Numbered from the stretch's first letter, positions 1 to 14,130 are shown. The stretch: 14,130 nucleotides of DNA from an uncultured Deinococcales bacterium (GCA_964247135.1 CAXTTL010000125.1:1-14130); one strand, 5' to 3'. The notes: generated by a model from the sequence alone, not told the origin. Translations and numbers: made by a program.

Positions 1-1764
1 TGGATGCGCAGTTGTGACTTCCAGAATTTCAGCTCGAGTCACCAGACTTTCTGGTTTTGGTGGCGTATTCGCGGCTGGCAGTGTGATTTTGAGTTTTAAA
101 CACGCGCTGCACTGTCCGCAATCGTGGTCGCTCGGGTCGCCAAAGTACCGTGCGAGTTGTTTGGCATAACAATCTGGGTTTTCAAACAACGCGACAACGC
201 TGTGAAGTCGCGCCAAATCTTGACTTTCGCGTTGCTCGAGTCTGGAATACAACTTTGAGGCGAGCGCATCGACATCAGTCATTGGTTTTAAACGCGTGTA
301 CTGACTTCTCGAGTCGCTGACCCGAACTTCGGCTAAATTTTGTTCGTCCAAATAATTGAGCGCCTTCACAATCCGGTCTCGGTCTTGACCAATGTTGGCG
401 GCGATCACGTCAGGACTGAGCGTGAGCCAATCGCGCCCCATTTTTCCAGCTTTAAAAACGCGGCGCAAAAACGTTTGGCGCTCCAAATCAAATCGCTCGA
501 GAATTTTGTCGATGTCACTCGAGAATTTCAGTTGATAGGTGGCGTATTGCGGCGTACCTTGCGACAAAACCCCCAGTAGCTCGAGGTAGGTTAAAAGTGT
601 TTTAAGGACTGTGCCGCGAATGTTGGTTTGCGTTCCGAGTTCGTACAAATTCAGCAACTTGGCATCTTCGCCTTGGCTTAAAAAGTCAATCAGAGATCGC
701 ACCGAACTTAAACTTGGCGTGTCACCGTAAGCGAATTGCTCGAGTGCCGCCAAATCCTCCAAACTACCGAACATCACGGCGGTACTCGGCAGTCCGTCCC
801 GTCCGGCGCGTCCGATCTCCTGGCTGTAACCCTCGAGACTTTTGGGCAGTTGGTAATGGTAGACGGCTCGAACATCAGATTTGTCAATGCCCATGCCAAA
901 GGCGATGGTGGCGACCACCACGGCATTTGGCGCGGTCATCCACCAATTTTGGACGTTGCTTCGAGCTTCGTCCTCCATGCCCGCGTGATAGGCTCGAGCC
1001 TCAATTCCAGCGTTCTCGAGTGATGCTGCCACGCTTTCGGCGTCACGTTGCAAACTGACGTAGACGATGCTGGTGCCCGGGTTTGCTTTAATTTCGCTTG
1101 CCAAAACTGAGGCTCGAACGATCTGCTTGGTTGGTTTGGCAATCAAGCTCAGGTTGTCGCGCCTCGAGCCGGTGATGATCGCGGCTGAAATTGGAATGTC
1201 AAAGGCTTTGCAGATGTCCTGTACGACTTTTGGCGTGGCGGTGGCGGTCAGTGCCAGAATCCGCTCGGCGCTTATTTCTTTGGCGAACGCCGCCAATTTC
1301 AGGTAATCGGGTCTGAAACTGTGTCCCCATTCCGAAATGCAGTGCGCCTCATCGATGGCGAACAAGGCAATCTTGGTACGCCGCATCAGGTCTTGGAACC
1401 GTTCGTTGTTGAATCGTTCGGGTGAAACGTACAAAATTTTGAGGCTGCCGTTTTTAATCTCGTTCCAGATTTGCAAGTTTTGATCGCGTGCCATGCTCGA
1501 GTCGAGTCTGGCAGCGGGAATGCCTTTCGTCAGCAGGTCTTCGACCTGGTCACGCATCAGGGCAATCAACGGCGAAACCACCAGCGTCAGCCCCTCGAGT
1601 TTAAGTGCCGGAATTTGATAGGTTAAGCTTTTGCCGCCGCCGGTCGGAAAGACTGCCAGGGCGCGAGCGTCGCGCTCTAAACTTTCGAGGACTTCAAGCT
1701 GTCCAGCACGAAAATTTGAGTGACCAAAACGTTTCAAAAGTTCCAAGGGTTCGGCTGACTCCAT
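1..1764 (-). CDS. recQ: RecQ-family ATP-dependent DNA helicase (3' end runs off the window)
   Basis: Manual translation of segments in one frame from the ATG at 1764 (MESAEPLELLKRFGHSNFRAGQ). Motifs found: Walker A AVFPTGGGKSLTYQIPAL, Ia LVVSPLIALMRDQV, II FAIDEAHCISEWGHSFRPDY, VI SQEIGRAGRDG and Zn-binding CYAKQLARYFG...CGQCSAC. The frame is open at position 1, so the ORF track (which needs a stop) omits it. Confidence 0.96.
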   Translation of the reverse strand, partial: MESAEPLELLKRFGHSNFRAGQLEVLESLERDARALAVFPTGGGKSLTYQIPALKLEGLTLVVSPLIALMRDQVEDLLTKGIPAARLDSSMARDQNLQIWNEIKNGSLKILYVSPERFNNERFQDLMRRTKIALFAIDEAHCISEWGHSFRPDYLKLAAFAKEISAERILALTATATPKVVQDICKAFDIPISAAIITGSRRDNLSLIAKPTKQIVRASVLASEIKANPGTSIVYVSLQRDAESVAASLENAGIEARAYHAGMEDEARSNVQNWWMTAPNAVVVATIAFGMGIDKSDVRAVYHYQLPKSLEGYSQEIGRAGRDGLPSTAVMFGSLEDLAALEQFAYGDTPSLSSVRSLIDFLSQGEDAKLLNLYELGTQTNIRGTVLKTLLTYLELLGVLSQGTPQYATYQLKFSSDIDKILERFDLERQTFLRRVFKAGKMGRDWLTLSPDVIAANIGQDRDRIVKALNYLDEQNLAEVRVSDSRSQYTRLKPMTDVDALASKLYSRLEQRESQDLARLHSVVALFENPDCYAKQLARYFGDPSDHDCGQCSACLKLKITLPAANTPPKPESLVTRAEILEVTTAHP

Positions 1765-1770
1765 TTCCAG

Positions 1771-1776
1771 ACGATA
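1771..1776 (-). promoter_or_regulatory. -10 element (TATCGT) for a probable leaderless recQ transcript
   Basis: TANNNT lies 6 nt upstream of the recQ ATG, with no Shine-Dalgarno sequence. Confidence 0.55.
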
Positions 1777-1837
1777 CCGCAGTATCTTTGAGTTGGTCTA
1801 AATCATGTGCAATTCCCTGTTTTTCCCTGCCCAAGCC

Positions 1838-1846
1838 TGCTAGTCT
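1838..1846 (+). promoter_or_regulatory. Putative extended -10 element (TG-C-TAGTCT) for the hypothetical gene
   Basis: TGnTAnnnT match ending 37 nt upstream of the ATG at 1884, divergent from the recQ promoter. Confidence 0.35.
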
Positions 1847-1883
1847 ATGGGGGTTTGAATTTCAAAATCCAAACGATATTCCA

Positions 1884-2330
1884 ATGACCAACACTTTACC
1901 CATCCCCAGTCTTGAGTTTGGAGCGCTACAAAAAGCCCTTCGGCGTGCGCTATCGAGCCGAGGCATGACCTGGGAAAAATTTGAGGTTGGCGCTCAACTC
2001 GCCAAACTCGAGGTCAGTGCACAACTTGAAGGCTTTCTTGACGCTTTCGTCACGGCTTACCCGCGACTTCGTGATGGCTTGGAACGTTTTGAAGCCACTC
2101 GAGCTTGGGTCACCAAATTGGTGTTGGCAATGCTGCTGGCACTCCATTCGGAAACCGACCCCGAACCTCGAGCCGATTGGGAGGCGCGTCCGTTTTCGGT
2201 GCGCGAGTCGAGCAATAGCGATAACGTTTTGTTGGTCTCTCGAGCGCTCGATTTTGATTGGTTTACCGGATTGAATCCCGCCTTGATTCGACTGCGTTCG
2301 TGCGTGGTTTGGGCAAGATTTCTGAGCTGA
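1884..2330 (+). CDS. Hypothetical protein (148 aa)
   Basis: 3' part of track ORF 1605..2330 that does not overlap recQ; starts MTNTLPIPSLEF. It fills the gap between recQ and the desaturase. No recognisable motif. Confidence 0.6.
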   Translation: MTNTLPIPSLEFGALQKALRRALSSRGMTWEKFEVGAQLAKLEVSAQLEGFLDAFVTAYPRLRDGLERFEATRAWVTKLVLAMLLALHSETDPEPRADWEARPFSVRESSNSDNVLLVSRALDFDWFTGLNPALIRLRSCVVWARFLS

Positions 2331-2337
2331 AGACGGG

Positions 2338-2386
2338 TAGAATGTCTTTATCGCTCCGTTTTCGTCCTCGCATGTTTGTCAGGAGA
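2338..2386 (+). promoter_or_regulatory. -10 element (TAGAAT, 2338-2343) and Shine-Dalgarno (AGGAGA, 2381-2386) of the desaturase gene
   Basis: Near-consensus -10 hexamer, a leader of about 40 nt, and a Shine-Dalgarno 4 nt before the ATG at 2391. Confidence 0.5.
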
Positions 2387-2390
2387 TGTC

Positions 2391-3467
2391 ATGGCTTCAA
2401 TTATGCCCCCAAGAGAAATTATCGACCAGGATCGTCCCTTAAGTCCTGCCAGTTTGTTATCGCGCAGCTACCGCGACCGGCTCATCGAACGCGGTCTGCT
2501 CGGCTTGTACCGCTGGTACACCGCCCGTTCTCAAGAAACCCGCAATTGGAACCCAGACTTGGGTTTTGATTGGCAAAATATTCGCACCGATTTCAACCCT
2601 CAAGTGCAAATGGTGCTCGAGGGCTTCTTTGCCGTCGAGCAGTACGCCCCCGATTACGTTAGCAAGTTCTTGCACATGGTTCGCCGCTCGCACGGGCGCA
2701 GCCACTTTCAAATGCGCTGGGGTTCTGAGGAAGAAAAACACGCCGACAGTTGGGAAAATGCCGTTCTGTTCAGCCGCAGCCGCACGCCAGCCTACCTCGA
2801 GGAGTACAAGATTGCGCTTCGCACCAACGAGTGGAAACTCCCCTGGGATGACGCGCTTCATGTCTTGCTGTACACGGTTTTTCAGGAACGCGCTACCCAA
2901 TTAAATTACCTCAATCTGGCAAAAATCACCCAGGGCATCTCGAGCAAACCAGAACTCAACGACCAGATTGATCCAGTCCTCACCAAGGTTGCCGTGACCA
3001 TCGCCACCGACGAGGCGGCGCATTACAATTTCTTTCTCGAGTGCGCCAGGTTGTTCATGTACTATTACCCGCTCGAGACGCTCGAAGCCATGCGCGATGT
3101 GGTCAATCACTTTGCCATGCCGGCAGGCGACATCATTCCAAACTGGGACGAGTTCTTTGAGGCGGCGTACAAGTGCGCGGTTTATGGACCCAGGGAGTAC
3201 GCCAGGGATGTTGTGGCGCTGGTGTTCTCGCAGTTTGGCGTGCAGGGCAAGCGTCAACTCGAGGAAGGCATCAAACGCACGCGCCTTGTGCCCGACGAGC
3301 AGGGACAGATGATGCAAACCGCGATTTGGGAAACCTTTGATCCCGAAATCATGCTCCGCGACGTCAAGCGCATTTACGCCAAGATTCAGGGACACGAAGC
3401 CAAATACGGCATGGACAAGATCGATCCCGTGGCACTCGTGGAAAATCCCGTCTGGCCCGTCCGTTAA
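2391..3467 (+). CDS. Acyl-ACP desaturase family (FA_desaturase_2, ferritin-like diiron) protein, 358 aa
   Basis: Diiron ligand motifs AVEQYAPDY, WGSEEEKH, VFQERAT, DEAAHY and FAMPA parallel the plant stearoyl-ACP desaturase motifs TEEALPTY, WTAEENRH, SFQERAT, DEKRH and xMPA. The start at 2391 is supported by AGGAGA. Confidence 0.88.
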   Translation: MASIMPPREIIDQDRPLSPASLLSRSYRDRLIERGLLGLYRWYTARSQETRNWNPDLGFDWQNIRTDFNPQVQMVLEGFFAVEQYAPDYVSKFLHMVRRSHGRSHFQMRWGSEEEKHADSWENAVLFSRSRTPAYLEEYKIALRTNEWKLPWDDALHVLLYTVFQERATQLNYLNLAKITQGISSKPELNDQIDPVLTKVAVTIATDEAAHYNFFLECARLFMYYYPLETLEAMRDVVNHFAMPAGDIIPNWDEFFEAAYKCAVYGPREYARDVVALVFSQFGVQGKRQLEEGIKRTRLVPDEQGQMMQTAIWETFDPEIMLRDVKRIYAKIQGHEAKYGMDKIDPVALVENPVWPVR

Positions 3468-3491
3468 GCAATCCAACCGATCTAAAATTTC

Positions 3492-3518
3492 AGGCGCATC
3501 CTCGAGGTGCGCCTTTTT
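3492..3518 (+). terminator. Rho-independent terminator after the desaturase
   Basis: AGGCGCATC-CTCGA-GGTGCGCCT forms a 9-bp stem (one G-U pair) running into a T5 tract. Confidence 0.8.
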
Positions 3519-3532
3519 AGATGCTCGAGCCG

Positions 3533-3538
3533 TAGAAT
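3533..3538 (+). promoter_or_regulatory. -10 element (TAGAAT) for a leaderless HD-hydrolase transcript
   Basis: 6 nt upstream of the ATG at 3545, no Shine-Dalgarno, directly after a terminator. Confidence 0.65.
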
Positions 3539-3544
3539 ACCGTT

Positions 3545-4081
3545 ATGAACCCTCAGGTACTGGCGCTTCAATTGATTGCCGAACGAATTCCTGGAACCCG
3601 CAAGGGTTCGCTCGAGGCGGCTTGGGTTCACTCAAAGCGGGTGTCGGAACGCTTGGCGCGGCACGGTTACGGACTTGACGTGGTTTTGGCTGGATTGCTG
3701 CACGATATCGTCGAGGACGGAAATACCACCTTACAAGAACTCTCAGACGTTGGATTCTCGAGTCGAACGGTTCGTCTGGTCGACCTCTCCAGTCACGACG
3801 ATGCCATTTTGGACAAAGACGAACGTTGGGCGCAAATGGTTTTCAGGCTCGAGCAAGCGGGTGACAGCGAAGCCTGGGCGGTCAAGGTCTGTGATTTGAT
3901 TGATAACTTGCACGGTTCTGTCAGTTTAGGCTTGGAGCGTCGCGCGGTGTTCTTTGAAGTCAAAGCCCCGACGTACCTCAGTTTGTCTAGAGTGCCACTG
4001 CAAATGAACGCCTTGTGGCTCGAGTTGCTTGAAGCCTTCTGTCAACCTGGAATTGATCGCTACAGAATTCTTTACGGTTGA
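3545..4081 (+). CDS. HD-domain hydrolase, RelA/SpoT hydrolase (Mesh1/small alarmone hydrolase)-like
   Basis: Motifs TRK...HSKRV, AGLLHDIVED and VKVCDLIDNL match the HD_4 pattern (H...LHDxxED...KxxDxxxN). Single domain, 178 aa, with no synthetase domain. Confidence 0.82.
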   Translation: MNPQVLALQLIAERIPGTRKGSLEAAWVHSKRVSERLARHGYGLDVVLAGLLHDIVEDGNTTLQELSDVGFSSRTVRLVDLSSHDDAILDKDERWAQMVFRLEQAGDSEAWAVKVCDLIDNLHGSVSLGLERRAVFFEVKAPTYLSLSRVPLQMNALWLELLEAFCQPGIDRYRILYG

Positions 4082-4174
4082 TTTTAAGCCGTGCCAAACA
4101 GCCTAGGCTGGCAAAACGCACGGGATTTTGCTGAAAGGATTTAAACTGAATTTTGAAAAAAACAAGGAGGATTT

Positions 4175-4624
4175 ATGAAACGCTTTTTAATTGTACTTCT
4201 GGTACTTCTGGGCTTCTCGTCGCTGGCTGGTGCGCAAAAGTTCTCAATCGGTGGCGGTATTAACGGTTCGGCTGGTTCTGGACAGAGCGCCCAAATTGGA
4301 GCCAGTCTTCAGTTTTCGATCAATGACTTGGTCGCCATTGGACCGTTGGGTGTGGACTTGCGCATCAATGCCGATGCGAGTTTCTCGAGCAGCACCAGCA
4401 TCGAAATTGGAATCACGCCCTTGGCGACCTTTCAGGTGGCTCAGTTTCGGTTGTACGCGGGTCCAAGCCTCAAATTTTTTATTCCAGGTGGGTTGGGTTT
4501 CGGTGCAGCCGCAGGTTTTAATTATCCCATCGCGCCAGGTTTGGACAGTTATGCTGAAATTAATTTGACTTTCGCCCCATTCTCGAGTTGGGCGCTACGG
4601 GTTGGCGTTCAGTACAGCTTCTAA
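4175..4624 (+). CDS. Small outer-membrane beta-barrel protein (about 8 strands) with signal peptide
   Basis: N-terminal signal peptide MKRFLIVLLVLLGFSSLAGA, alternating amphipathic Gly/aromatic-rich strands, a C-terminal BAM-type motif LRVGVQYSF, and a strong Shine-Dalgarno AAGGAGG at 4164-4170. Confidence 0.8.
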   Translation: MKRFLIVLLVLLGFSSLAGAQKFSIGGGINGSAGSGQSAQIGASLQFSINDLVAIGPLGVDLRINADASFSSSTSIEIGITPLATFQVAQFRLYAGPSLKFFIPGGLGFGAAAGFNYPIAPGLDSYAEINLTFAPFSSWALRVGVQYSF

Positions 4625-4636
4625 AGATTAAAATTG

Positions 4637-4671
4637 AAAGCCTTTTGAATCTAGGTTTGAGAGGCTTTTTT
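4637..4671 (+). terminator. Rho-independent terminator after the beta-barrel gene
   Basis: AAAGCCTTTTGAATC-TAG-GTTTGAGAGGCTTT stem (several G-U pairs, valid on the + strand) ending in a T6 tract. Confidence 0.7.
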
Positions 4672-4684
4672 CATGAATCTGCGG

Positions 4685-4690
4685 TACACT
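4685..4690 (+). promoter_or_regulatory. -10 element (TACACT) for a near-leaderless PASTA gene
   Basis: 8 nt upstream of the ATG at 4699, no Shine-Dalgarno, downstream of a terminator. Confidence 0.55.
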
Positions 4691-4698
4691 GTGCCCCG

Positions 4699-6525
4699 AT
4701 GACGCTGGAAAAACTTGATGGAAAATACGAGGTCAAACGCGAAATCTCGCGCGACGCCGCCGTTCGCAGCGTCGAAGCTGCCACCTCGGATGGTCGCGCC
4801 GTCCGTGTCGATTGGTTTTTTGTCATCGATCCAAAAAGCCGTTCTAACTTTCACCGTTACCGCACCGCCTTAAAAACCGCCAACTCCCCGCTGATGCTCG
4901 ATGCCGTCGCCCGACCAGGGGCGTATTACACGGTTTGGCAACTCGAGGGCGGGGCAAGTGCGGCATCATGGTTGGAAGCGCATCCCAAGGATGACGGATT
5001 CCGTGGACACCTTCAAACCATCGCCACTTCGCTCGAGGCTTTTGGTTTTTCGCTCGCCGATACCGATGTGATTGCGGTGGAACACCGAGAAAACGGCAAA
5101 GCCGAGGTGCGCCCAGCGATTGCCAATTTACGTCTGATCGAACGGACCCCAGACGAGATTAAACAATTGAACATGACCTTGCTCGAGCCGAAAAAAGCCC
5201 CAGCCAAAGCCATTTTTGCGGTCAACACCAAAAAACCTGTCGTCAAACCAAATCCCGTGGTTGACCCCAATCTCGAGCCTTCCACCAAGGCTGTCATTCC
5301 AAAATTAAACCAACGCCGTTTGACCATTTGGGGCATCGTTCCAGGAATTGCGCTGCTGATTGGCACGGGGTTTTTTGGTCAACAGGTGGTCCAAGCCTTT
5401 TTGCAACCCAGCATGGTGGTTGTTCCCAATGTGGTCGGCAAACCCGTCCGTGAGGCGGCCAAAATCCTTTCTGAAACCCGTTTAAACACCAACCTCGAGA
5501 AGGGCAACGACAACACGCAGCCTCAGGGCATTGTGCTGTCGCAAAACCCGCCCAAGGGAACATCGCTGACCGAAACCCGAGTGGTCAGCATTGTTGTGAA
5601 TTACCCAAGACCACTTATTGCCCCAGATTTGGTGGGCAAGCTTGGCACTGAAGCCAAAATCACCCTCAAAGAATTGGGTTTGGTCACCGCAAACGTCGCC
5701 ATCGTACCAGCCGCCGAGGGTGAACCTCGAGGCGTGGTCTTGGCGCAAAATCCAATTCCAGGAACGCAGATGATCAAGGGCAGCGGCGTGACCATTCTGG
5801 TCAGTGGCGCACGCCCAGAAAAGGGCAAAACCTTCCTGCCCGATTTGACTGGACTTTCGTTCGAGGAAGCCCGAGCACTCATTAAGATGTCCGGTTTGAC
5901 CTTGGTCGAAATCAACACCCGCAATTCGACAGTTGCCAAAAATACGGTTTTGGCTCAAACCCCTGCGCCAAACAAAAGCGTGGCGCTCGAGGGTGAGGCG
6001 ACCTTAACAATTGCCACCACCGCGAATGCCCAAAAACCGGTCGTGCCAGAGCCAATTCGACCACGCCCAATTGTTCCAATCCCAAACAACCCGACCCCCA
6101 CCAACCCCCAAGCCACACCAATACCGACACCCACTCCCACACCAACACCAACGCCAGAAACCACAACTGTGACACCGCCCGTCACAAGCCCGACCAACAA
6201 CCCGGTTCTTCCCGAAGGTCAAAAACCTCCAGCCGAAACGCCGACCACCCCCGATCCTGTGACCACGCCAACGCAACCAGTTCCAGTGACAACACCCACG
6301 ACCACCACCCAGACACGTTCCGTCACATTTTCTTATCTTGTTCCGGCAGACCTTGGAACGGTCACTTTGGAGGTGCGCATGGTAGACGACGACGGCGAGA
6401 AAACCATTTACGGTCCGCTCAGTGTCCCTGGAGGCACAACAATTGACCTGCCTCGAGAGGTGCGCGGCAAAGCAACCTTCACGGTCATTATTGATGGAGT
6501 GCCGAAGTATGTCGGAGAATTGTGA
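4699..6525 (+). CDS. PASTA-domain membrane protein (degenerate kinase-like N-terminus, TM helix, 3 PASTA repeats, Pro/Thr linker, C-terminal beta domain), 608 aa
   Basis: TM segment IWGIVPGIALLIGTGFFG. PASTA repeats begin VVVPNVVGKPVREA, LIAPDLVGK and FLPDLTGLSFEEA, with VLSQNP, VLAQNP and VLAQTP motifs. The track start at 4588 overlaps the upstream gene and terminator, so the ATG at 4699 is preferred. Confidence 0.9.
   Translation: MTLEKLDGKYEVKREISRDAAVRSVEAATSDGRAVRVDWFFVIDPKSRSNFHRYRTALKTANSPLMLDAVARPGAYYTVWQLEGGASAASWLEAHPKDDGFRGHLQTIATSLEAFGFSLADTDVIAVEHRENGKAEVRPAIANLRLIERTPDEIKQLNMTLLEPKKAPAKAIFAVNTKKPVVKPNPVVDPNLEPSTKAVIPKLNQRRLTIWGIVPGIALLIGTGFFGQQVVQAFLQPSMVVVPNVVGKPVREAAKILSETRLNTNLEKGNDNTQPQGIVLSQNPPKGTSLTETRVVSIVVNYPRPLIAPDLVGKLGTEAKITLKELGLVTANVAIVPAAEGEPRGVVLAQNPIPGTQMIKGSGVTILVSGARPEKGKTFLPDLTGLSFEEARALIKMSGLTLVEINTRNSTVAKNTVLAQTPAPNKSVALEGEATLTIATTANAQKPVVPEPIRPRPIVPIPNNPTPTNPQATPIPTPTPTPTPTPETTTVTPPVTSPTNNPVLPEGQKPPAETPTTPDPVTTPTQPVPVTTPTTTTQTRSVTFSYLVPADLGTVTLEVRMVDDDGEKTIYGPLSVPGGTTIDLPREVRGKATFTVIIDGVPKYVGEL
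6040..6315 (+). repeat. Low-complexity Pro/Thr-rich coding linker (PTPTPTPTPE...)
   Basis: Translation of the PASTA gene. Codons vary between repeats, so this is a protein-level repeat rather than a DNA-level one. Confidence 0.75.
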
Positions 6526-6536
6526 AGCTTCGAGCG

Positions 6537-6542
6537 TAAAAT
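6537..6542 (+). promoter_or_regulatory. -10 element (TAAAAT) for a leaderless hydrolase-PanK transcript
   Basis: 7 nt upstream of the GTG at 6550, no Shine-Dalgarno. Confidence 0.55.
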
Positions 6543-6549
6543 AATTATC

Positions 6550-7449
6550 GTGAATTCTTCCACTCCCGAAATCCACGGCGATGGTTTTAAACCACATCCG
6601 GCGCTCGAGCCGTACTCGAGAAATCTTGACGGCGCGTTCTATTTTGATTCAGAACCCTTTTCAACCAAGCCAATCGTGGTACTTGTTCATGGCAACGGCG
6701 ACGAAGCCGATACTTGGCGTCACGTCTTTACACCGCTTGCCAAATCATTTCGGGTTGTGGCGCTCGATTTACCTGGTTTTGGACGTTCACTTCCAGCCAA
6801 GACCGGCGATTTGAACAGTCTCACCGCAGCCCTCTGGAGTTTTATAGATGACTTAAAACTTCCAAGTGTGCATTTGGTTGGCTCAAGCATGGGCGCGGTC
6901 ATTTGCGCAAGCTATGCGATTCAAAATCCAACTCGAGTGGCAAGTTTGACAATGGTTGGCGGCGCAACTTTAAATTCTGGCGAACTCGAAGCCAATCCTG
7001 GCATCAAAAGTTTGCTCGAGCTTGGAACGGGCGAGGCTTATTACAATGGTTTGCGCACCTTGGGACAAGATGCGGCGTTCGCAACGCTCGAGCCGTATTA
7101 CGCCAACCTTCAAACGATGTCAAAATCTGATCTCGGATTTTTGCGCGAACGTGTTTGGGCGAGGGTTTGGTCTGACACGCAACGAGACGCCTTCCTCGCC
7201 GCTTTGAGAAGTCTGTTCAAGCAAAGTCCAGCAACGACTTCTGAACTCGAGCATCTGCCGTTGCAATTGATTTGGGGAGCACATGACCAGATTGTTCCAT
7301 TTCAAGCCGCTTTGGACATGCAAAAAGCGTTGCCACAAGCCAAACTCGAGGTGATTGACGGGGCGGGTCATCTTCCGCACCAAGAAAAACCAGCAGCATT
7401 TCTAGAAGTGCTCAAGATGTTTTTGTACCATCTCGAGGCAAAATCATGA
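6550..7449 (+). CDS. Alpha/beta fold hydrolase (Abhydrolase_1/6)
   Basis: VLVHGNG oxyanion loop, ALDLPGFGRS, nucleophile elbow GSSMG, acid residue in WGAHDQIVP, catalytic His in GAGHLPHQE. Confidence 0.93.
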   Translation: MNSSTPEIHGDGFKPHPALEPYSRNLDGAFYFDSEPFSTKPIVVLVHGNGDEADTWRHVFTPLAKSFRVVALDLPGFGRSLPAKTGDLNSLTAALWSFIDDLKLPSVHLVGSSMGAVICASYAIQNPTRVASLTMVGGATLNSGELEANPGIKSLLELGTGEAYYNGLRTLGQDAAFATLEPYYANLQTMSKSDLGFLRERVWARVWSDTQRDAFLAALRSLFKQSPATTSELEHLPLQLIWGAHDQIVPFQAALDMQKALPQAKLEVIDGAGHLPHQEKPAAFLEVLKMFLYHLEAKS

Positions 7450-8288
7450 TCTTGGGTTTGGATTTTGGTTTGACCAACCTGGACGCCGTGCTGGTTGAAG
7501 CTGGGCAGATCGTGCAAGGCTGGCGGCAAGATACCCACGGCATTGCCAATTTGGAATTAATCGAACAGATTGTGATTGATCACGACATCAAACTTGGGCA
7601 CTTGACTTGTATCGGCACCACGGGCGGCAGGCACAAAGAACTGTCCTCGGGTTTTAAAGGGATTCCCATTTTCAAAATAGGCGAAGCGCAAGCGGTCGGT
7701 CACGGCGGTTTGCAGATGGCAAAACTCGAGCAGGCGCTGGTGGTCAGTGCGGGTACGGGCACGAGCATGATTGCCGCTCGAGGCTCAATCTTTGGGCATG
7801 TCACGGGCAGTGCGGTGGGTGGCGGAACGCTCTTGGGTTTGGCAAAATTGCTGCTCGCAACAGCCAACCCGCTCGAGATTGCCGCATTGGCAGCCAAAGG
7901 CAATCCTGCTGGGGTTGACAGCACCCTTTTGGATGTTCTGGGTTCTGGCATCGGTCATCTGCCCAGCGATGCCACCGCCGTCAACTTCGGACGCCTCGTG
8001 GCACTCGAGCAACCTGCAACCCGTGAGGACATGGCGGCGGGTTTGGTGACATTGGTTTCGCAAGTGATCGCGGTGATTGCCCTAAACGCGGCAAATGCAC
8101 AGAACCTCGAGCGCATCGTGATCGTCGGACATCTGGTGGACCTCGAACCGATTCGTGCCGCCATCCAGCGGGTATGGGGTTTTTATGGGGTGCAACAGCC
8201 AGCAATCATGCCCGCAGCACGAGGTTTTGCCACCGCCTTGGGCGCGGCACTCGAGGCAGAAATTGAACATGGAAAAAGCCGCGAGTGA
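7446..8288 (+). CDS. coaW: Type II (Fumble/CoaW-like) pantothenate kinase
   Basis: ASKHA motifs GLDFGLT, TTGG, GEAQA, VSAGTGTSM, GSAVGGGTLLGLAKLL, GNPAGVD, ATAVNFG and EDMAAGL correspond to S. aureus-type PanK-II. The start overlaps the upstream stop (ATGA). Confidence 0.85.
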   Translation: MILGLDFGLTNLDAVLVEAGQIVQGWRQDTHGIANLELIEQIVIDHDIKLGHLTCIGTTGGRHKELSSGFKGIPIFKIGEAQAVGHGGLQMAKLEQALVVSAGTGTSMIAARGSIFGHVTGSAVGGGTLLGLAKLLLATANPLEIAALAAKGNPAGVDSTLLDVLGSGIGHLPSDATAVNFGRLVALEQPATREDMAAGLVTLVSQVIAVIALNAANAQNLERIVIVGHLVDLEPIRAAIQRVWGFYGVQQPAIMPAARGFATALGAALEAEIEHGKSRE

Positions 8289-8301
8289 ATCTTCGCGGCT
8301 T
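8273..8301 (-). terminator. Terminator of the ABC operon, overlapping the 3' end of the kinase gene (possibly bidirectional)
   Basis: Inverted repeat AAGCCGCGA-N8-TCGCGGCTT, running into a T5 tract on the - strand; lies between convergent genes. Confidence 0.75.
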
Positions 8302-8321
8302 GAAAACCCGAGTTTTAAGAC

Positions 8322-9335
8322 TTAAAGCACATCGTCACGAATACAGGCTTTGAAATGCCCTGGCGCGACCTCTTTTAATTCTGGCACGGTATGCTCGCAT
8401 TCGGCAATCTTGTAACGGCAACGCGTGCGGAACACGCAACCGCTCGGCGGGTTGATTGGACTTGGAATATCACCTTCAAGCAAGATTCGCTCGCGTTTAA
8501 TGGTCGGGTCTGGAATCGGCGCAGCCGACAATAGCGCCTCGGTGTACGGATGCTTGGGGTTGAGGTAGAGTTCTTTGGCTGGCGCAACCTCCATGATCTT
8601 GCCCAAATACATCACCACAACGCGGTCGCAAATGTATTCGACCACCGCCAAATCGTGCGCGATAAACAGCAGCGTCAAACCAAGATCGCGTTGCAAATCC
8701 TCGAGAAGATTAACGACTTGGGCTTGAATCGAAACGTCGAGCGCCGACACGGGTTCGTCTGCCACGATAAATTCTGGCTTGACCGCCAATGCCCTGGCAA
8801 TACCGATGCGTTGACGTTGACCGCCCGAAAACTCGTGCGGGTAACGGCGCATGTGATCCGGCGACAAACCGACTTGACGCAGCAACTCGGCGACCCGATC
8901 CACTCGAGCCTGCCCTTTGGCGAGGTTGTGAATTTGGAGTGCCTCGCCGATGATGTCACCCACGGTCATGCGCGGGTTGAGCGACGCAAAAGGGTCTTGG
9001 AAAATGATTTGCATTTTCTTGCGGTACTCGCGCATGTCGTTTTTGGAAAGCTTAACGACATCCTGTCCGTCAAACTTGACCTCGCCCGAAGTGGGTTCGA
9101 TCAGCCGCAAGATGGCGCGTCCAGCCGTGGTCTTGCCCGAGCCTGACTCACCGACCAAGCCGAGCACCTCGCCGCGATGAATCTTAAACGAAACATCGTT
9201 GACGGCTTTGACGTTCGCCACCACCCGAGACAACAAACCGCCGCGAATGGGGAAGAACTTCACCAGATTGTTGACCTCGAGCAAAACGTCTTGTTTGACT
9301 TGTTGCTCGGTTTTTTGGGGACTGGGTGCGGTCAC
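8322..9335 (-). CDS. oppF: Oligopeptide/dipeptide ABC transporter ATP-binding subunit (OppF/DppF type)
   Basis: [27 protein letters not shown] and a C-terminal oligo_HPY domain with Cys cluster. GTG start at 9335 follows GAAGGAG. Confidence 0.95.
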
Positions 9336-9337
9336 GC

Positions 9338-10342
<1,005 letters not shown>

Positions 10343-10381
10343 GTTCTGCCCCCATAAATTTAATACCATGGTTCCTCGAGT

Positions 10382-11524
10382 TTACTGACGTTTGCGTGGA
10401 TCAACCGCGTCGCGCAAACCATCGCCCAGGAAGTTCCAACATAATACTGCCAAGACAATAAAGAAACCAGGAATCAGCACCCAAGGGCGGTATTGAATGC
10501 TGGCAAAGCCGCCTTCCTGGGCAACACTGATCATCAAGCCCCAACTCGAGTATGGTTCTCGAATGCCGTAACCCAAGAAACTCAGTCCAGATTCGGCAAG
10601 AATTGCACCTGGAATGGCAAGCGACAGATTGACAATCAACAATGAAAAAGTGACTGGCAACATGTGCTTACCAATGATCCGAGCTTCGGAGGCGCCCAAA
10701 GCGGTCGCTGCCTGCACAAAATCAACCTCACGCAATGCAGAAATCTGTGAGCGAACAGTTCTTGCCAAACCACCCCAACCGATAATGCCAAGTACAAAAA
10801 TAATCCCGTAAAAGCTGACAACAGGATCAATATTTCTTGGAATCAGCGCGGAAAGCGACAGCAATAAGAACAAATCTGGAATGGCTGAAAGGATTTCGAC
10901 AAAACGCATGATGATGTTGTCAACCCAACCACCAAAAAACCCTGCCAAACCACCCATAAATAAACCCAATACCGTTGAAATGGCAACAGCAAAAATACCA
11001 ATGGTCAATGAAATTTGCGCACCATACCAAATTCGGGTAAAGGTATCACGACCAAAGCCATCTGTGCCCAAAATAAAAATATTGCCAGGCGAATCGACAC
11101 CAAACAAATGCACCGTCATGGGAATAAAACCAAACAACTGATACGGCGATTCTGGTCGGTTGTGAAACAATTTAATCGGGTATTTAACACTGCGGTCTTC
11201 TTTATACCCCTCTTCAAAGGTATCGGGATTGGTAAAACGCGTGGATTTGTAAACAAAAGGCAAGTTGAACTGCCCAGTTTCAGGGTCAATCACATACACT
11301 CGAGTGGGTTGCTGGAATTTGGTGATGTCCGTGGTGCTGTACTCGGACAGGCTGTACGGTGAAATAAAGGGGGCAAAAATCGCACCAATATACAAGACCA
11401 CCAAAATCATGCCGCCAAACACTGCCAATTGGTGCTTGCGAAATTGCTCCCAAACCACCTGCAATTGGGATTTGGACTTGGCGGTATCGAAATTTGTACC
11501 TGAAACTCCAGTTGCGAGTGCCAT
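10382..11524 (-). CDS. oppC: Peptide ABC transporter permease (OppC/DppC type)
   Basis: OppC_N-like WEQFRKHQLAVFG, LGTDGFGRD, EAA-loop DFVQAATALGAS and GDGLRDAVDP. The ATG at 11524 abuts the oppB stop. Confidence 0.94.
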   Translation of the reverse strand: MALATGVSGTNFDTAKSKSQLQVVWEQFRKHQLAVFGGMILVVLYIGAIFAPFISPYSLSEYSTTDITKFQQPTRVYVIDPETGQFNLPFVYKSTRFTNPDTFEEGYKEDRSVKYPIKLFHNRPESPYQLFGFIPMTVHLFGVDSPGNIFILGTDGFGRDTFTRIWYGAQISLTIGIFAVAISTVLGLFMGGLAGFFGGWVDNIIMRFVEILSAIPDLFLLLSLSALIPRNIDPVVSFYGIIFVLGIIGWGGLARTVRSQISALREVDFVQAATALGASEARIIGKHMLPVTFSLLIVNLSLAIPGAILAESGLSFLGYGIREPYSSWGLMISVAQEGGFASIQYRPWVLIPGFFIVLAVLCWNFLGDGLRDAVDPRKRQ

Positions 11525-11525
11525 A

Positions 11526-12509
11526 TCAGTAGTACCTAATCCGTGGATCAACCACACCGAGCAAGAAGTCGGACATTAAATTGCCAATCACCAACAACAC
11601 CAAGGTAATCGCACCAATGCTGACATTGACGTAAATATCTTGCGAGAACAGAGCCTCGAGAAAGACTGGGGTTAAACCGGGCCAGTTGAAAACCACCTCG
11701 ACAAAACCTGCACCGCTAAAAATTGCGGGCAGCAAACCGCCAATATTGGCAACAAAAGGCGTGATTGCGTTGCGCAGCGTGTGCTTGTAAATCACCACGC
11801 GTTGCGAAAGACCTTTCGCCCTGGCGGTACGAACAAAATCTTGATTGAGAAATTCGAGCATCTGCGCCCTGAAACCTCGAGATTCGGAGGCGATGCTTCG
11901 CAGCAACAGCGCAATCATGGGGGCAAGCGTATGCCATAAAACATTGGCAACTTTGCCAAGCGGTGAAAGTGAATCGTAAAATTCGCTGGTCATGCCACCA
12001 ACAGGAAGAACTTTAGCGTTTAATGCCCAATTGAGTTGAATGATACCAAAAATGAGGATTAAAGCGAAGAAAAACGATGGAAAACCTAAAAAAAAGTACG
12101 AAAATAAACTTATCGTTTTATCACCCAAGCTGTATTGCCTTATAGCGCCATAAATACCAATCGGAATTGCAATCAAGTACAACAAAAAAGTTGATCCAAA
12201 AACCAAAATCATGGAGTTAAAAACTTTAGGTCCAATCAAATCCCAAACGGGAACATTGCTTTCAAAAGAAACACCTAAATTTCCGGTCACAAAATTTTTA
12301 AGCCACAAAACATATTGCACATAAACTGGCTTATCCAAACCAAACTGCCGCTCAATCCGTGCAATGGTTGCAGGCGTAGTTCGTGGATCGAGCCGTTTTG
12401 CATCCAAGAAATCACCTGGTGCGGCTTGAATGATTAAAAACGTTAGTAATGTTGCCCCAATAAAGACTGGGATCAAATTAACAAAACGCCTTAAAATGTA
12501 GGGAAGCAC
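11526..12509 (-). CDS. oppB: Peptide ABC transporter permease (OppB/DppB type)
   Basis: YILRRF, PGD, FGLDKP...QY, DFVRTARAKGL, HTLRNA, EVVFNWPG and DPRIR. GTG start follows GAGGAG. Confidence 0.95.
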   Translation of the reverse strand: MLPYILRRFVNLIPVFIGATLLTFLIIQAAPGDFLDAKRLDPRTTPATIARIERQFGLDKPVYVQYVLWLKNFVTGNLGVSFESNVPVWDLIGPKVFNSMILVFGSTFLLYLIAIPIGIYGAIRQYSLGDKTISLFSYFFLGFPSFFFALILIFGIIQLNWALNAKVLPVGGMTSEFYDSLSPLGKVANVLWHTLAPMIALLLRSIASESRGFRAQMLEFLNQDFVRTARAKGLSQRVVIYKHTLRNAITPFVANIGGLLPAIFSGAGFVEVVFNWPGLTPVFLEALFSQDIYVNVSIGAITLVLLVIGNLMSDFLLGVVDPRIRYY

Positions 12510-12528
12510 AAATGTCTCCTCAATCTTG

Positions 12529-12559
12529 GCGAAACTCGAGCGACTTGCTCAAGTTTCGC
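12529..12559 (-). promoter_or_regulatory. Intergenic stem-loop between the binding-protein and permease genes (mRNA stabiliser or attenuator)
   Basis: On the - strand, GCGAAACTTGAGC-AAGTC-GCTCGAGTTTCGC forms a 13-bp stem with one G-U pair and no U-tract. Confidence 0.65.
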
Positions 12560-12595
12560 ACTTTTATTCGTGATGTTCAAGGTTGCTTTTGAAGC

Positions 12596-14130
12596 TTATT
12601 TTTGCATCCAAGTGGTTTCGGCAGTCACAAGACGTGGACCATTGATTGATGTTTGCAATGCCGTTGGCAATTCGCCTTTGACATTTGATCCCCATGAGAA
12701 GTGAACGTTTGGCGATACGAGATAATCCCAAGCTTGGTAGCCAGATTGCACATTTTGAATTTGTTGGGCAATCGCTACACGCTTTTTGAAGTCGAGTTCT
12801 TGTTTGCCACGGGCGAACAAAGCTGTGACTTGGGTTTCCCAAGCTGCCAAGCATTTACCTGACTTATTGAATGCGTGCAAGTTTGTACCGCAAGGTTCGA
12901 CGTTATCACCCAATGGGTAAATGCGTCCACCACCGGAAAGTCCAAGCAAAATCGCATCAAACTTACGATCATCACCATCAGAAAGTAGCAATTGAACAAG
13001 TGTATTGAAATCAACCGGTTTGAAGTTGACTTTGACGCCGACTTTTTTGGCTTCGTCAGCAAAAATCTTTGCCAATTGTTCGCGTTGGTTGTTACCACTG
13101 TTGGTGGTCAAGTCAAATTCGGCAACTTTACCCGCTTTGTTGACCAAATAACCGTCACTGTTCTTTTTGACAAAACCAGCCTTAGCAAGCAATGCCGTTG
13201 CAGCCTCGAGGTTGTAATCAAACTTTTTCAGGTCTGGCGAAATCCATTGTGTGAATGCCGCATAGACACTCGAGTAAGCTGGTTGTCCCAAGCCACCATA
13301 AACAATGTCCACCATTGCAGCACGGTTTGTGATGTGGCTCATGGCACGGCGGAAGTTGTCGTCTCGGAACATGGTTTGCTTGCTTGGATTGCTCTTTTGA
13401 TTCCAGTTAAAAACAATCCACTGGCTCGAGGAGGCTGGTCCAACGTTTGCACGCAAAGTGGCTTTCAACTTGCCAGCATCGATTGCCGCTTTCACTTGAC
13501 GCAGTTGGTCAGCGTTTGCGGGTGAGAAAGAATCTGTATCGCCGTTCAGATATGCAGCCAATTGAGCCGTTGTATCTTTGACAATCGCAATGGTGCGTCC
13601 ATCAAGATAAGGCAAGCCGTTTCCAGCCGAGTTTTTGTTCCATTCGCCGAAAAACTTGTTGGCAACAAATTCTGCACGTTCACCCGGTTTGTAGCTTTTA
13701 AACTTAAACGCACCATCAGAAACAATTTGTTCGGCAGGGGTGTTCATTGTCCACATGGCTTTGATGCCTGCTGCACCTTTTGCGGCATAAACTGGTTCAA
13801 AAACATGCGTCGGTGCGGGAGAAAATGCCAGGGTTTCGATGGCATCTGCGGCAACTGTTGGCAAAATAGCTTGAATGGTATCCGCATCAATTTTTTTGAT
13901 TTTGATTGGCTTATCATTAATGAAAAAACTATCGTAAGCGTTCGCACCAACATCTTCGTCGGTATTAATCTTAAATGCAGTAATAAAATCGTCAGCAATG
14001 ATTGGCTTACCATCAGACCACTTCATGCCTTTACGCACGTTCATAGTCCAAACAAGTTTATCTTTAGAAACGGTATAACTCGAAGCCATATAAGGAATGT
14101 ATTCGCCGGTCGCGGGATCATAGGCAAACA
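12596..14130 (-). CDS. oppA: ABC transporter substrate-binding protein, family 5 (OppA/DppA/AppA-like), 5' end outside the window
   Basis: Family-5 motifs RKGMKWSDGKPIIADD, GAFKFKSY, PYLD, FRDDNFRRAMS and YNLEAATALLAKAG. The frame stays open upstream of Met 14089 (FAYDPATGEYIPYMA) to the window edge. Confidence 0.93.
   Translation of the reverse strand, partial: FAYDPATGEYIPYMASSYTVSKDKLVWTMNVRKGMKWSDGKPIIADDFITAFKINTDEDVGANAYDSFFINDKPIKIKKIDADTIQAILPTVAADAIETLAFSPAPTHVFEPVYAAKGAAGIKAMWTMNTPAEQIVSDGAFKFKSYKPGERAEFVANKFFGEWNKNSAGNGLPYLDGRTIAIVKDTTAQLAAYLNGDTDSFSPANADQLRQVKAAIDAGKLKATLRANVGPASSSQWIVFNWNQKSNPSKQTMFRDDNFRRAMSHITNRAAMVDIVYGGLGQPAYSSVYAAFTQWISPDLKKFDYNLEAATALLAKAGFVKKNSDGYLVNKAGKVAEFDLTTNSGNNQREQLAKIFADEAKKVGVKVNFKPVDFNTLVQLLLSDGDDRKFDAILLGLSGGGRIYPLGDNVEPCGTNLHAFNKSGKCLAAWETQVTALFARGKQELDFKKRVAIAQQIQNVQSGYQAWDYLVSPNVHFSWGSNVKGELPTALQTSINGPRLVTAETTWMQK

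Follow-up and report, generated by a model that had tools for sequence, protein, structure and literature searches.

Why should a single six-base palindrome, CTCGAG, recur throughout a bacterial chromosome, in genes and between them? The question is raised by a 14,130-nucleotide stretch of DNA from an uncultured Deinococcales bacterium (hereafter the window), which is contig C125 (CAXTTL010000125.1) of assembly G000 (GCA_964247135.1; 5.09 Mb in 386 contigs, the longest of 116 kb, 84% complete). An earlier note on the window had estimated about 67 copies of the word and had proposed that a DNA-level system creates or maintains it. Exact counting gave 67 copies, the first at position 33 and the last at 13430 (4.7/kb), whereas 200 dinucleotide-preserving shuffles of the window held 2.15 copies on average (standard deviation 1.59, maximum 8) and none of them reached 67. 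As set out below, CTCGAG is a highly iterated palindrome of the type named HIP in cyanobacteria, and it is held by a force that acts on the DNA, independently of reading frame and on all six bases.

The excess was not confined to this contig, a possibility that the earlier note had named as fatal to its proposal. G000 contains 33,925 copies (6.66/kb), 24.8 times the zero-order expectation, which makes CTCGAG the commonest of all hexamers, with one copy per ~150 bases in genic and intergenic DNA together. All 386 contigs carry it (lowest density 2.56/kb, median 6.8/kb), and 62% of all TCGA tetramers in G000 sit within it. A maximal-order (order-4) Markov model gave an excess of just 1.24-fold, because the pentamers CTCGA and TCGAG are inflated by the word itself; as these pentamers set the expectation, the model was rejected as a null. 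One-off variants had also been described as common. This held for transitions, which are mildly raised genome-wide (TTCGAG and CTCGAA 1.7–1.8-fold, CCCGAG and CTCGGG 1.4-fold, CTTGAG and CTCAAG 1.2-fold), and did not hold for GTCGAG, which is at expectation (0.97-fold), or for most transversion variants, which are at or under it.

The most ordinary explanation would be codon-pair, dipeptide or amino-acid usage, above all that of Leu-Glu, or else an artefact of assembly, binning or a repeat family. It draws on the fact that 17,070 of the 27,132 coding copies (63%) lie in the CTC-GAG frame, among 4,221 genes called with a simple codon-score open reading frame (ORF) caller, which is rough and leaves out genes cut at contig ends. 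However, 86% of the coding copies vanish when synonymous codons are shuffled within genes (3,806 left), and shuffling of codon order leaves 1,594; an excess explained by codon usage, which the earlier note had named as refuting its proposal, was thus not what was observed. The other two frames, xCT-CGA-Gxx (3,903 copies) and xxC-TCG-AGx (6,159), are enriched 11–15-fold over synonymous shuffles (261 and 551, respectively, against 2,994 for CTC-GAG). Spacers of 20–400 bases (274 kb in all) hold 2,436 copies, 8.9/kb or 43 times the expectation, and are thus denser than coding DNA. CTC and GAG are otherwise minority codons, at 15% and 32% where they are not part of the word. The word is moreover present in every contig of G000 and in 18 of 18 independent assemblies of the same family, and its flanks are not conserved. 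Usage or artefact is therefore almost certainly not the answer, in line with the earlier statement that Leu-Glu codon pairs are insufficient.

The strength of the pressure could be compared between contexts. Where the protein sequence permits the word, it is used in 77.7% of Leu-Glu contexts (expectation from the codons used elsewhere, 4.9%; ln odds 4.2), in 41.8% of [SPTA]-Arg-[GAVDE] contexts (1.3% expected; 4.0) and in 48.9% of x-Ser-[Ser/Arg] contexts (3.1% expected; 3.4). The excess in spacers, ln 43 = 3.8, falls within this coding range of 3.4–4.2, and the similar pressure in all three frames and in spacers thus indicates one DNA-level force, as the earlier note had supposed. CTCGAG is present wherever the protein allows it, and the proteins themselves have been altered. 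Leu-Glu is the most over-represented dipeptide of the proteome (21,980 copies, observed/expected 2.37, against 1.02 for Glu-Leu and 1.63 for Ser-Ser), so that the force has reshaped codon use and protein content alike.

No longer sequence accompanies the word. Genome-wide, 39% of copies are directly preceded by G (−1) and 38% directly followed by C (+1); in spacers the weakly preferred bases are A at −3 (45%), G at −1 (35%), C at +1 (35%) and T at +3 (46%); the mirror symmetry of such averaged flanks is automatic for a palindrome and by itself proves nothing. A dispersed repeat of the repetitive extragenic palindrome (REP) or miniature inverted-repeat transposable element (MITE) type was not found, as no flanking base exceeds 39% genome-wide or 46% in spacers. 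In the absence of conserved flanks CTCGAG is not a dispersed repeat; it is made in place by point substitutions.

Five genomes of the same genus match the window at 81–86% DNA identity over syntenic stretches, and one of them, G005, was used to follow individual sites (400 kb sampled, of which 310 kb aligned to G000 at 85% identity). Between the two genomes CTCGAG had a Jaccard conservation of 0.682 (2,215 and 2,022 sites, 1,718 shared), the highest value among the 2,901 hexamers that occur 60 times or more (median 0.27, 95th percentile 0.40). Seventy-eight per cent of the G000 sites are kept in G005 against 38% expected from the background identity per codon position. Retention was high in each of the three frames (994/1,221, 81%; 188/260, 72%; 298/388, 77%; expected 38%), and non-genic sites were kept in 235 of 320 cases (73%, expected 32%). 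Codon conservation was controlled for as Xu et al. (2018; PMC5861425) did for HIP1: given a conserved amino acid, codons were retained more often inside than outside the word (CTC 90% and 55%, GAG 95% and 72%, TCG 94% and 70%, CGA 86% and 54%, respectively). Among 434 pairs in which the word faces a one-off variant, 358 were transitions, distributed over the half-site positions as 122, 128 and 108; all six bases are guarded alike and none is singled out. The inner transition variants CTTGAG and CTCAAG rank among the least conserved hexamers (0.07–0.09), as expected of short-lived decay products or precursors. Neither G at −1 nor C at +1 makes a difference to site conservation (77–79%), and isolated sites are slightly better kept than crowded ones (70% to 84%, rho 0.076, p 4e-4). 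In a comparison of six genomes over 15.8 kb, 33 sites were present in all but one genome and 10 in a single one. A net decay of sites was considered for this pattern and rejected: as permissive contexts are 42–78% occupied, the pattern is what would be expected of saturation or parallel gains and does not show decay.

These data bear directly on the possibility that a context-dependent mutation bias alone accounts for the word, a polymerase or repair enzyme writing CTCGAG with no bias in fixation. The equal excess in all contexts, the near-random placement described below and the mildly raised transition variants would agree with it. Synonymous and spacer sites are, however, conserved far above background, for which a bias in creation is insufficient, and we know of no mutational process that writes a six-base palindrome with equal pressure on each base. 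Mutation bias alone thus appears very unlikely.

The trait extends well beyond G000, as the earlier note had claimed for the lineage. All 18 other genomes of the family carry it (838–4,448 GCTCGAGC each). Over the phylum, 150 other genomes were sampled, with GAGCTC (CTCGAG backwards) as the control word. In genus g7 (2–6 Mb) CTCGAG occurs at 0.01–0.28/kb, at or under expectation; in genus g9 (~2.2 Mb) it reaches ~0.6–1.6/kb, roughly equal to the control and thus without specific excess. Genera g13–g15, of the Thermus-containing family, have 1.4–3.4/kb with the control at 0.1–0.7 (genomes 97–100% complete, several of them single contigs). Further values are 1.55/kb for g6, 2.4/kb for g27 and 0.7–2.9/kb for family f4 (control ~0.8). 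We infer that g7, g9 and g13 correspond to Deinococcus, Thermus and a Meiothermus-like genus. Seventy-two loci of other phyla, pooled, gave 0.35/kb. The trait is thus graded over Deinococcota, avoided in g7, neutral in g9 and at 1.4–6.7/kb elsewhere.

Within the window, the 67 sites fall into 37 CTC-GAG, 12 xxC-TCG-AGx and 10 xCT-CGA-Gxx placements in the 12 genes used and 8 outside those genes, with copies in genes of both strands. The examples given earlier were right in each case (2616 for CTC-GAG; 2939, 3757 and 4384 for xxC-TCG-AGx; 5726 and 6932 for xCT-CGA-Gxx), and the four sites that had been called intergenic (3501, 3524, 10375 and 12535) all lie outside the genes used. The features concerned are the following.

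33..13430, no strand: 67 copies of CTCGAG, ~5.8/kb up to 10.3 kb and ~2.4/kb in the opp permease and binding-protein genes, whose GC is lower
3492..3514, plus strand: terminator-like hairpin after the desaturase gene, with CTCGAG (3501–3506) at its apex and a T run following
3524..3529, no strand: intergenic CTCGAG between the desaturase and HD-domain genes (position count)
10375..10380, no strand: CTCGAG in the 12-base spacer separating two opp genes (position count)
12535..12540, no strand: intergenic CTCGAG between an opp permease gene and the binding-protein gene (position count)
12596..14089, minus strand: family-5 solute-binding protein gene, with 3 CTCGAG in 1.5 kb, of the class that is lowest in density genome-wide

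The GC content of the window, 0.52–0.55, drops to 0.43–0.47. The hairpin at 3492..3514 has a 9-pair stem and a predicted RNA folding energy of −21 kcal/mol (z −2.15); it is a single local use of CTCGAG and not a general pattern, since hairpins of this kind are rare around the word, only 0.9% of intergenic sites having at least four perfectly complementary flanking pairs. The remaining four sites outside the genes used (2007, 2098, 2167 and 2239) fall in an ORF at 1605–2330 (241 codons, no Pfam match), which overlaps the start of a recQ-like gene and is a candidate coding sequence only. A 73%-identical paralogous stretch of this ORF is located on contig C73, and window bases 1812–2331 match several further contigs of same-genus genomes at 72–75%; it may be either a small unannotated gene family or a repeat.

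Genome-wide, the placement of the word is near-Poisson (variance/mean 0.91 at 500 bases and 1.12 at 1 kb; coefficient of variation of spacing 0.96). The spacing shows a 3-base periodicity and a deficit below 18 bases, and a helical or nucleosome-like (10–11-base) phasing was not detected in the spacing analysis of G000. Pairs at distance 6 never occur, because they would create GAGCTC, and pairs 8 bases apart are nearly absent (11 against ~216 expected), partly because GAG-NN-CTC itself is at 0.31-fold, an indication that this word too is avoided. In spacers, close pairs show no more than a mild excess. Over the 40 bases that follow stop codons density doubles (14.3 and 10.8/kb), and it is also elevated 20–60 bases before starts.

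The avoidance of GAGCTC is complete in the DNA sampled: there is no copy in the 5.09 Mb of G000 (1,369 expected) and none in the 400 kb of G005. A D12-class methyltransferase stands in an operon with a SacI-family nuclease (PF09566, 29.7 bits) at G000:C320:1061-2985 (locus L218), and as this nuclease is found in just 7 of the 18 family genomes, it could explain the absence only in part. G000 shuns many other palindromes: GGCC has 380 copies (observed/expected 0.02), CTAG stands at 0.07 and CCGG at 0.23, and of the 64 hexamer palindromes about 30 reach no more than 0.1-fold (GGGCCC 1 copy, CGGCCG 3, AGGCCT 4, CGTACG 5, GGATCC 7). Resident NgoPII-, Eco29kI- and MvaI/BcnI-family systems would fit as the source of some of these avoided words.

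Genes without the word are few. Only 3 of 1,611 genes of at least 1 kb lack it altogether. The 20 long genes of lowest density, when scanned, comprised 10 ABC-type solute-binding protein genes, 3 ABC permease genes, 3 of other known families and 4 with no family; mobile DNA was rejected as an explanation for them, none of the 20 falling in a mobile-element family. Both rpsL and rpsG are without CTCGAG, and the ribosomal-protein operon of G005 has ~2.4/kb against 6.25/kb over the 400-kb sample. The ribosomal L16 gene was sought in G000 (84% complete) and not found in the assembly; the S10/spc operon is probably missing from the bin, which might reflect its atypical k-mer make-up. The low density in solute-binding and ribosomal-protein genes fits a force per site that is weak relative to codon and amino-acid constraint.

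Longer gaps are of another nature. CTCGAG-free gaps above 1.5 kb number 16, against 1.4 expected, and the six that were examined proved to be sharp-edged islets of GC 0.26–0.40 within dense DNA. Their genes encode a reverse transcriptase-protease, an AAA ATPase, two pilin-like proteins along with Wzy_C, and unknown products. A low-GC restriction-modification pair of G000 likewise has 0–1.3 copies/kb. As the motif-free stretches are foreign-looking in composition, resident DNA would seem to acquire the word over time. One islet, G000:C4:51606-53234 (locus L238:1107-2735; GC 0.35), encodes a reverse transcriptase fused to a trypsin-like protease and, lying amid CTCGAG-dense genes, looks like a recently acquired defence-type gene. 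Another, G000:C135:1000-3271 (locus L236), carries two pilin-like (N_methyl) genes and a Wzy_C (O-antigen ligase-like) gene with no CTCGAG, and adjoins genes with 15 copies per 1.2 kb; it is a variable surface locus of foreign-looking composition.

Islets that lack the word are also what an uptake or recombination signal would leave, if the competence machinery preferred CTCGAG-bearing DNA and the word had spread by molecular drive. Deinococcus and Thermus are naturally transformable, and the DNA uptake sequences of Neisseriaceae (DUS) and of Pasteurellaceae (USS) are, like CTCGAG, common just after genes. That the word is shared by the whole family and weaker in other lineages of the order, that all six bases are kept and that the proteome is distorted would also suit such a signal. 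Known uptake words are, however, 9–12 bases long and not palindromic; six bases discriminate little, and CTCGAG occurs several times more densely than such words do. Under 1% of its copies in spacers form part of a longer inverted repeat, no receptor is known, and g9, probably the transformable genus, has no specific excess. On balance, an uptake signal seems to us an unlikely origin.

The earlier note had further linked the word to a methyltransferase acting on CTCGAG or TCGA. Methyltransferases of five families (PF00145, PF01555, PF02086, PF02384 and PF07669) were searched, a search limited by the incompleteness of most genomes and by the fact that sequence does not reveal specificity. The following were present in G000.

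C5 methyltransferases: beside NgoPII-family and Eco29kI-family nucleases
N6_N4 methyltransferase: beside an MvaI/BcnI-family nuclease
C207: N6_N4 methyltransferase beside a weak NotI-like match
C4: 466-aa ORF weakly matching PF01555, together with an edge fragment on the same contig
C36: solitary N6_N4 gene of 349 aa beside alaS
Type I HsdM-like gene, two MmeI-like genes and a 1,499-aa Eco57I-type gene
D12-class enzyme: in the operon with the SacI-family nuclease

No methyltransferase of these five families tracks CTCGAG richness. Among the 18 family genomes, the solitary C36 gene has close relatives only in G002 and G007, and a stop-interrupted copy occurs in G019 of the neighbouring family f2; the NotI-linked C207 gene has close relatives in four. 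In the closed relative G011, which has no PF01555 gene, no plausible cognate enzyme was found in the five families. Its C5 gene (beside an HD-CE gene) has no relative above 38% identity in 30 other genomes, G000 included, its N6_Mtase genes are either of type I, judging from the genes around them, or members of a patchily distributed HsdM-like family, and its D12 genes resemble M.CbeI or adjoin a SacI-family nuclease. The 500–540-aa N6_Mtase genes were set aside as type I by neighbours, and so was the HsdM-like family of 630–800 aa, which occurs in 19 of 151 genomes including 9 of 77 of the CTCGAG-poor g7. PF02086 is present in 17 of 18 genomes of the family, 15 of 15 of g13, 7 of 27 of g9 and 19 of 77 of g7; as a tracking family it was rejected, as it splits into unrelated groups, namely M.CbeI-like enzymes (whose site we take to be GGCC), the partner of the SacI-family nuclease (7 of 18 family genomes), Dam/DpnII-like enzymes and a separate g13/g15 orphan. 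This orphan, a D12-class methyltransferase of ~357 aa, was identified by ORF size and score in all 17 sampled genomes of g13/g15, the clade that ranks second in CTCGAG richness. Sequence comparison gave no relative in the PDB, no nuclease gene adjoins the orphan, and in G030 and G038 it lies between housekeeping genes (loci L223, G030:C1, and L224, G038:C1).

As specificity is unreadable from sequence and G000 is 84% complete, the proposed link to a methyltransferase is weakened only. The explanation that depends on it most is a methyltransferase-coupled mismatch-repair ratchet, in which methylated CTCGAG is fixed and its losses are reverted, the word being a functionless by-product. It follows the model of Elhai (2015; PMC4390886), who reports for each cyanobacterial HIP a co-occurring methyltransferase with the matching specificity, and in which saturation is given as ~1/kb. 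These genomes are indeed rich in methyltransferases, the C36 gene beside alaS looks solitary, and the G and C preferred on either side of the word (−1 and +1) are reminiscent of the G-mC step in the model. Set against this are the failure of any methyltransferase to track the trait, from the sparse C36 and C207 genes to the unpromising set of G011 and the patchy HsdM-like family; Vsr, which was not found in G000; the equal guarding of all six positions rather than of one methylated base; and a density ~6 times the saturation given for the model. The ratchet is in our view improbable.

The search of G000 showed no resident restriction-modification system of the XhoI type either: the XhoI-family nuclease (PF04555) was not detected in this 84% complete assembly, and the site is enriched. 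Such nucleases occur in 4 of 151 genomes of the phylum, in families f4 and f2 and none in the family of G000, and CTCGAG is not depleted in the genomes that have them. CTCGAG is thus not a restriction target in G000, and no sign of a need for a cognate methyltransferase was found. In the closed f4 genome G021, an XhoI-family nuclease gene faces an N6_N4 methyltransferase gene (G021:C1:75199-76793, locus L126), the latter with at most 28% identity to any methyltransferase of G000. Both genes are without CTCGAG, though G021 holds 1.7/kb, and a putative CTCGAG restriction system is presumed to coexist there with a target that is not depleted.

What, then, maintains the word? We tentatively favour a candidate two-fold symmetric, sequence-specific DNA reader, that is a protein dimer, which would use CTCGAG as a genome-wide mark or binding site. 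Each site would carry a small advantage, either through selection or through a fixation bias coupled to the reader. That the word might serve this predicted reader as a chromosome-wide ‘self’ word in recombination, repair, transformation or defence is a more speculative step, possible and somewhat doubtful. Several points weigh against the reader, which is a predicted protein. The divergence data do not distinguish selection for a function from a bias in fixation, for example through biased repair or conversion. Near-random placement without phasing gives no positive sign of a structural role, and the lowest densities, in solute-binding and ribosomal-protein genes, indicate a weak benefit per site. 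Isolated sites are only slightly better retained than crowded ones, and gene-level constraint may produce this trend. Finally, the methyltransferase search spans five families of unreadable specificity in an 84% complete genome.

Among known systems, the Dcm/Vsr very-short-patch repair of E. coli can likewise raise the frequency of a methylated palindrome (CCWGG) by a bias. That effect is small and guards one base, whereas CTCGAG is 25-fold enriched with its six bases guarded equally and without a Vsr found. DUS and USS resemble CTCGAG in being lineage-wide, dense words that distort proteins, are rarer in low-GC islets and are enriched after genes. CTCGAG is, however, shorter, palindromic and several times denser, and rarely forms inverted pairs; the terminator-forming pairs typical of DUS and USS were not seen as a pattern, in view of the 0.9% of spacer sites with at least four complementary flanking pairs.

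With the target of an XhoI-type restriction-modification system CTCGAG shares the same six bases and an expected two-fold symmetric recognition. Restriction targets are normally avoided, whereas CTCGAG is 25-fold enriched in G000, the search of which yielded no XhoI-family nuclease. Unless its sites were modified, such DNA would be cut by XhoI about every 150 bp. A predicted XhoI-type pair with the target CTCGAG is MamA/MSMEG_3214 of M. smegmatis (PMC7526240). No publication describing CTCGAG as an iterated palindrome in Deinococcota was found in a search whose coverage did not extend to supplementary methylome tables. To our knowledge, cyanobacteria are the only group from which highly iterated palindromes have been described to date, and what purpose these serve is unknown.

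The closest counterpart is HIP1 (GCGATCGC), described together with alternate cyanobacterial HIPs by Elhai (2015; PMC4390886) and Xu, Lawrence and Durand (2018; PMC5861425), so that the earlier comparison with HIP1 was apt. Abundance at least ~15-fold above expectation, independence of frame together with presence in non-coding DNA, and conservation of sites, as expected of a HIP, were all found for CTCGAG. Both words are short GC-rich palindromes, tens of times over-represented in all frames and in spacers; in tests of one kind (Xu et al., 2018) their orthologous sites are kept to a degree that codon conservation does not account for, and in both cases many other palindromes are avoided in the rest of the genome. 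For HIP1 a chromosome-scale periodicity of 10–90 kb has been reported (Xu et al., 2018). As distinct from the cyanobacterial HIPs, which are reported to co-occur with matching methyltransferases (Elhai, 2015), no cognate orphan methyltransferase was found for CTCGAG in the five families searched. Its dominance of the k-mer composition can affect binning, gene finding and the detection of horizontal transfer. As the trait is graded over one phylum, a comparative and experimental search for the responsible gene is feasible. If CTCGAG were indeed a ‘self’ word, HIPs would represent a general bacterial strategy with independent origins in Deinococcota and cyanobacteria, and a function that has been elusive in 30 years of HIP1 research would become testable in a second, genetically unrelated system (g13–g15). 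With another word, of six bases instead of eight, in another phylum, and with ~6.7 copies/kb against the ~1/kb given for HIP1 by Elhai (2015), a roughly sixfold higher density, the highly iterated palindrome is no cyanobacterial oddity.

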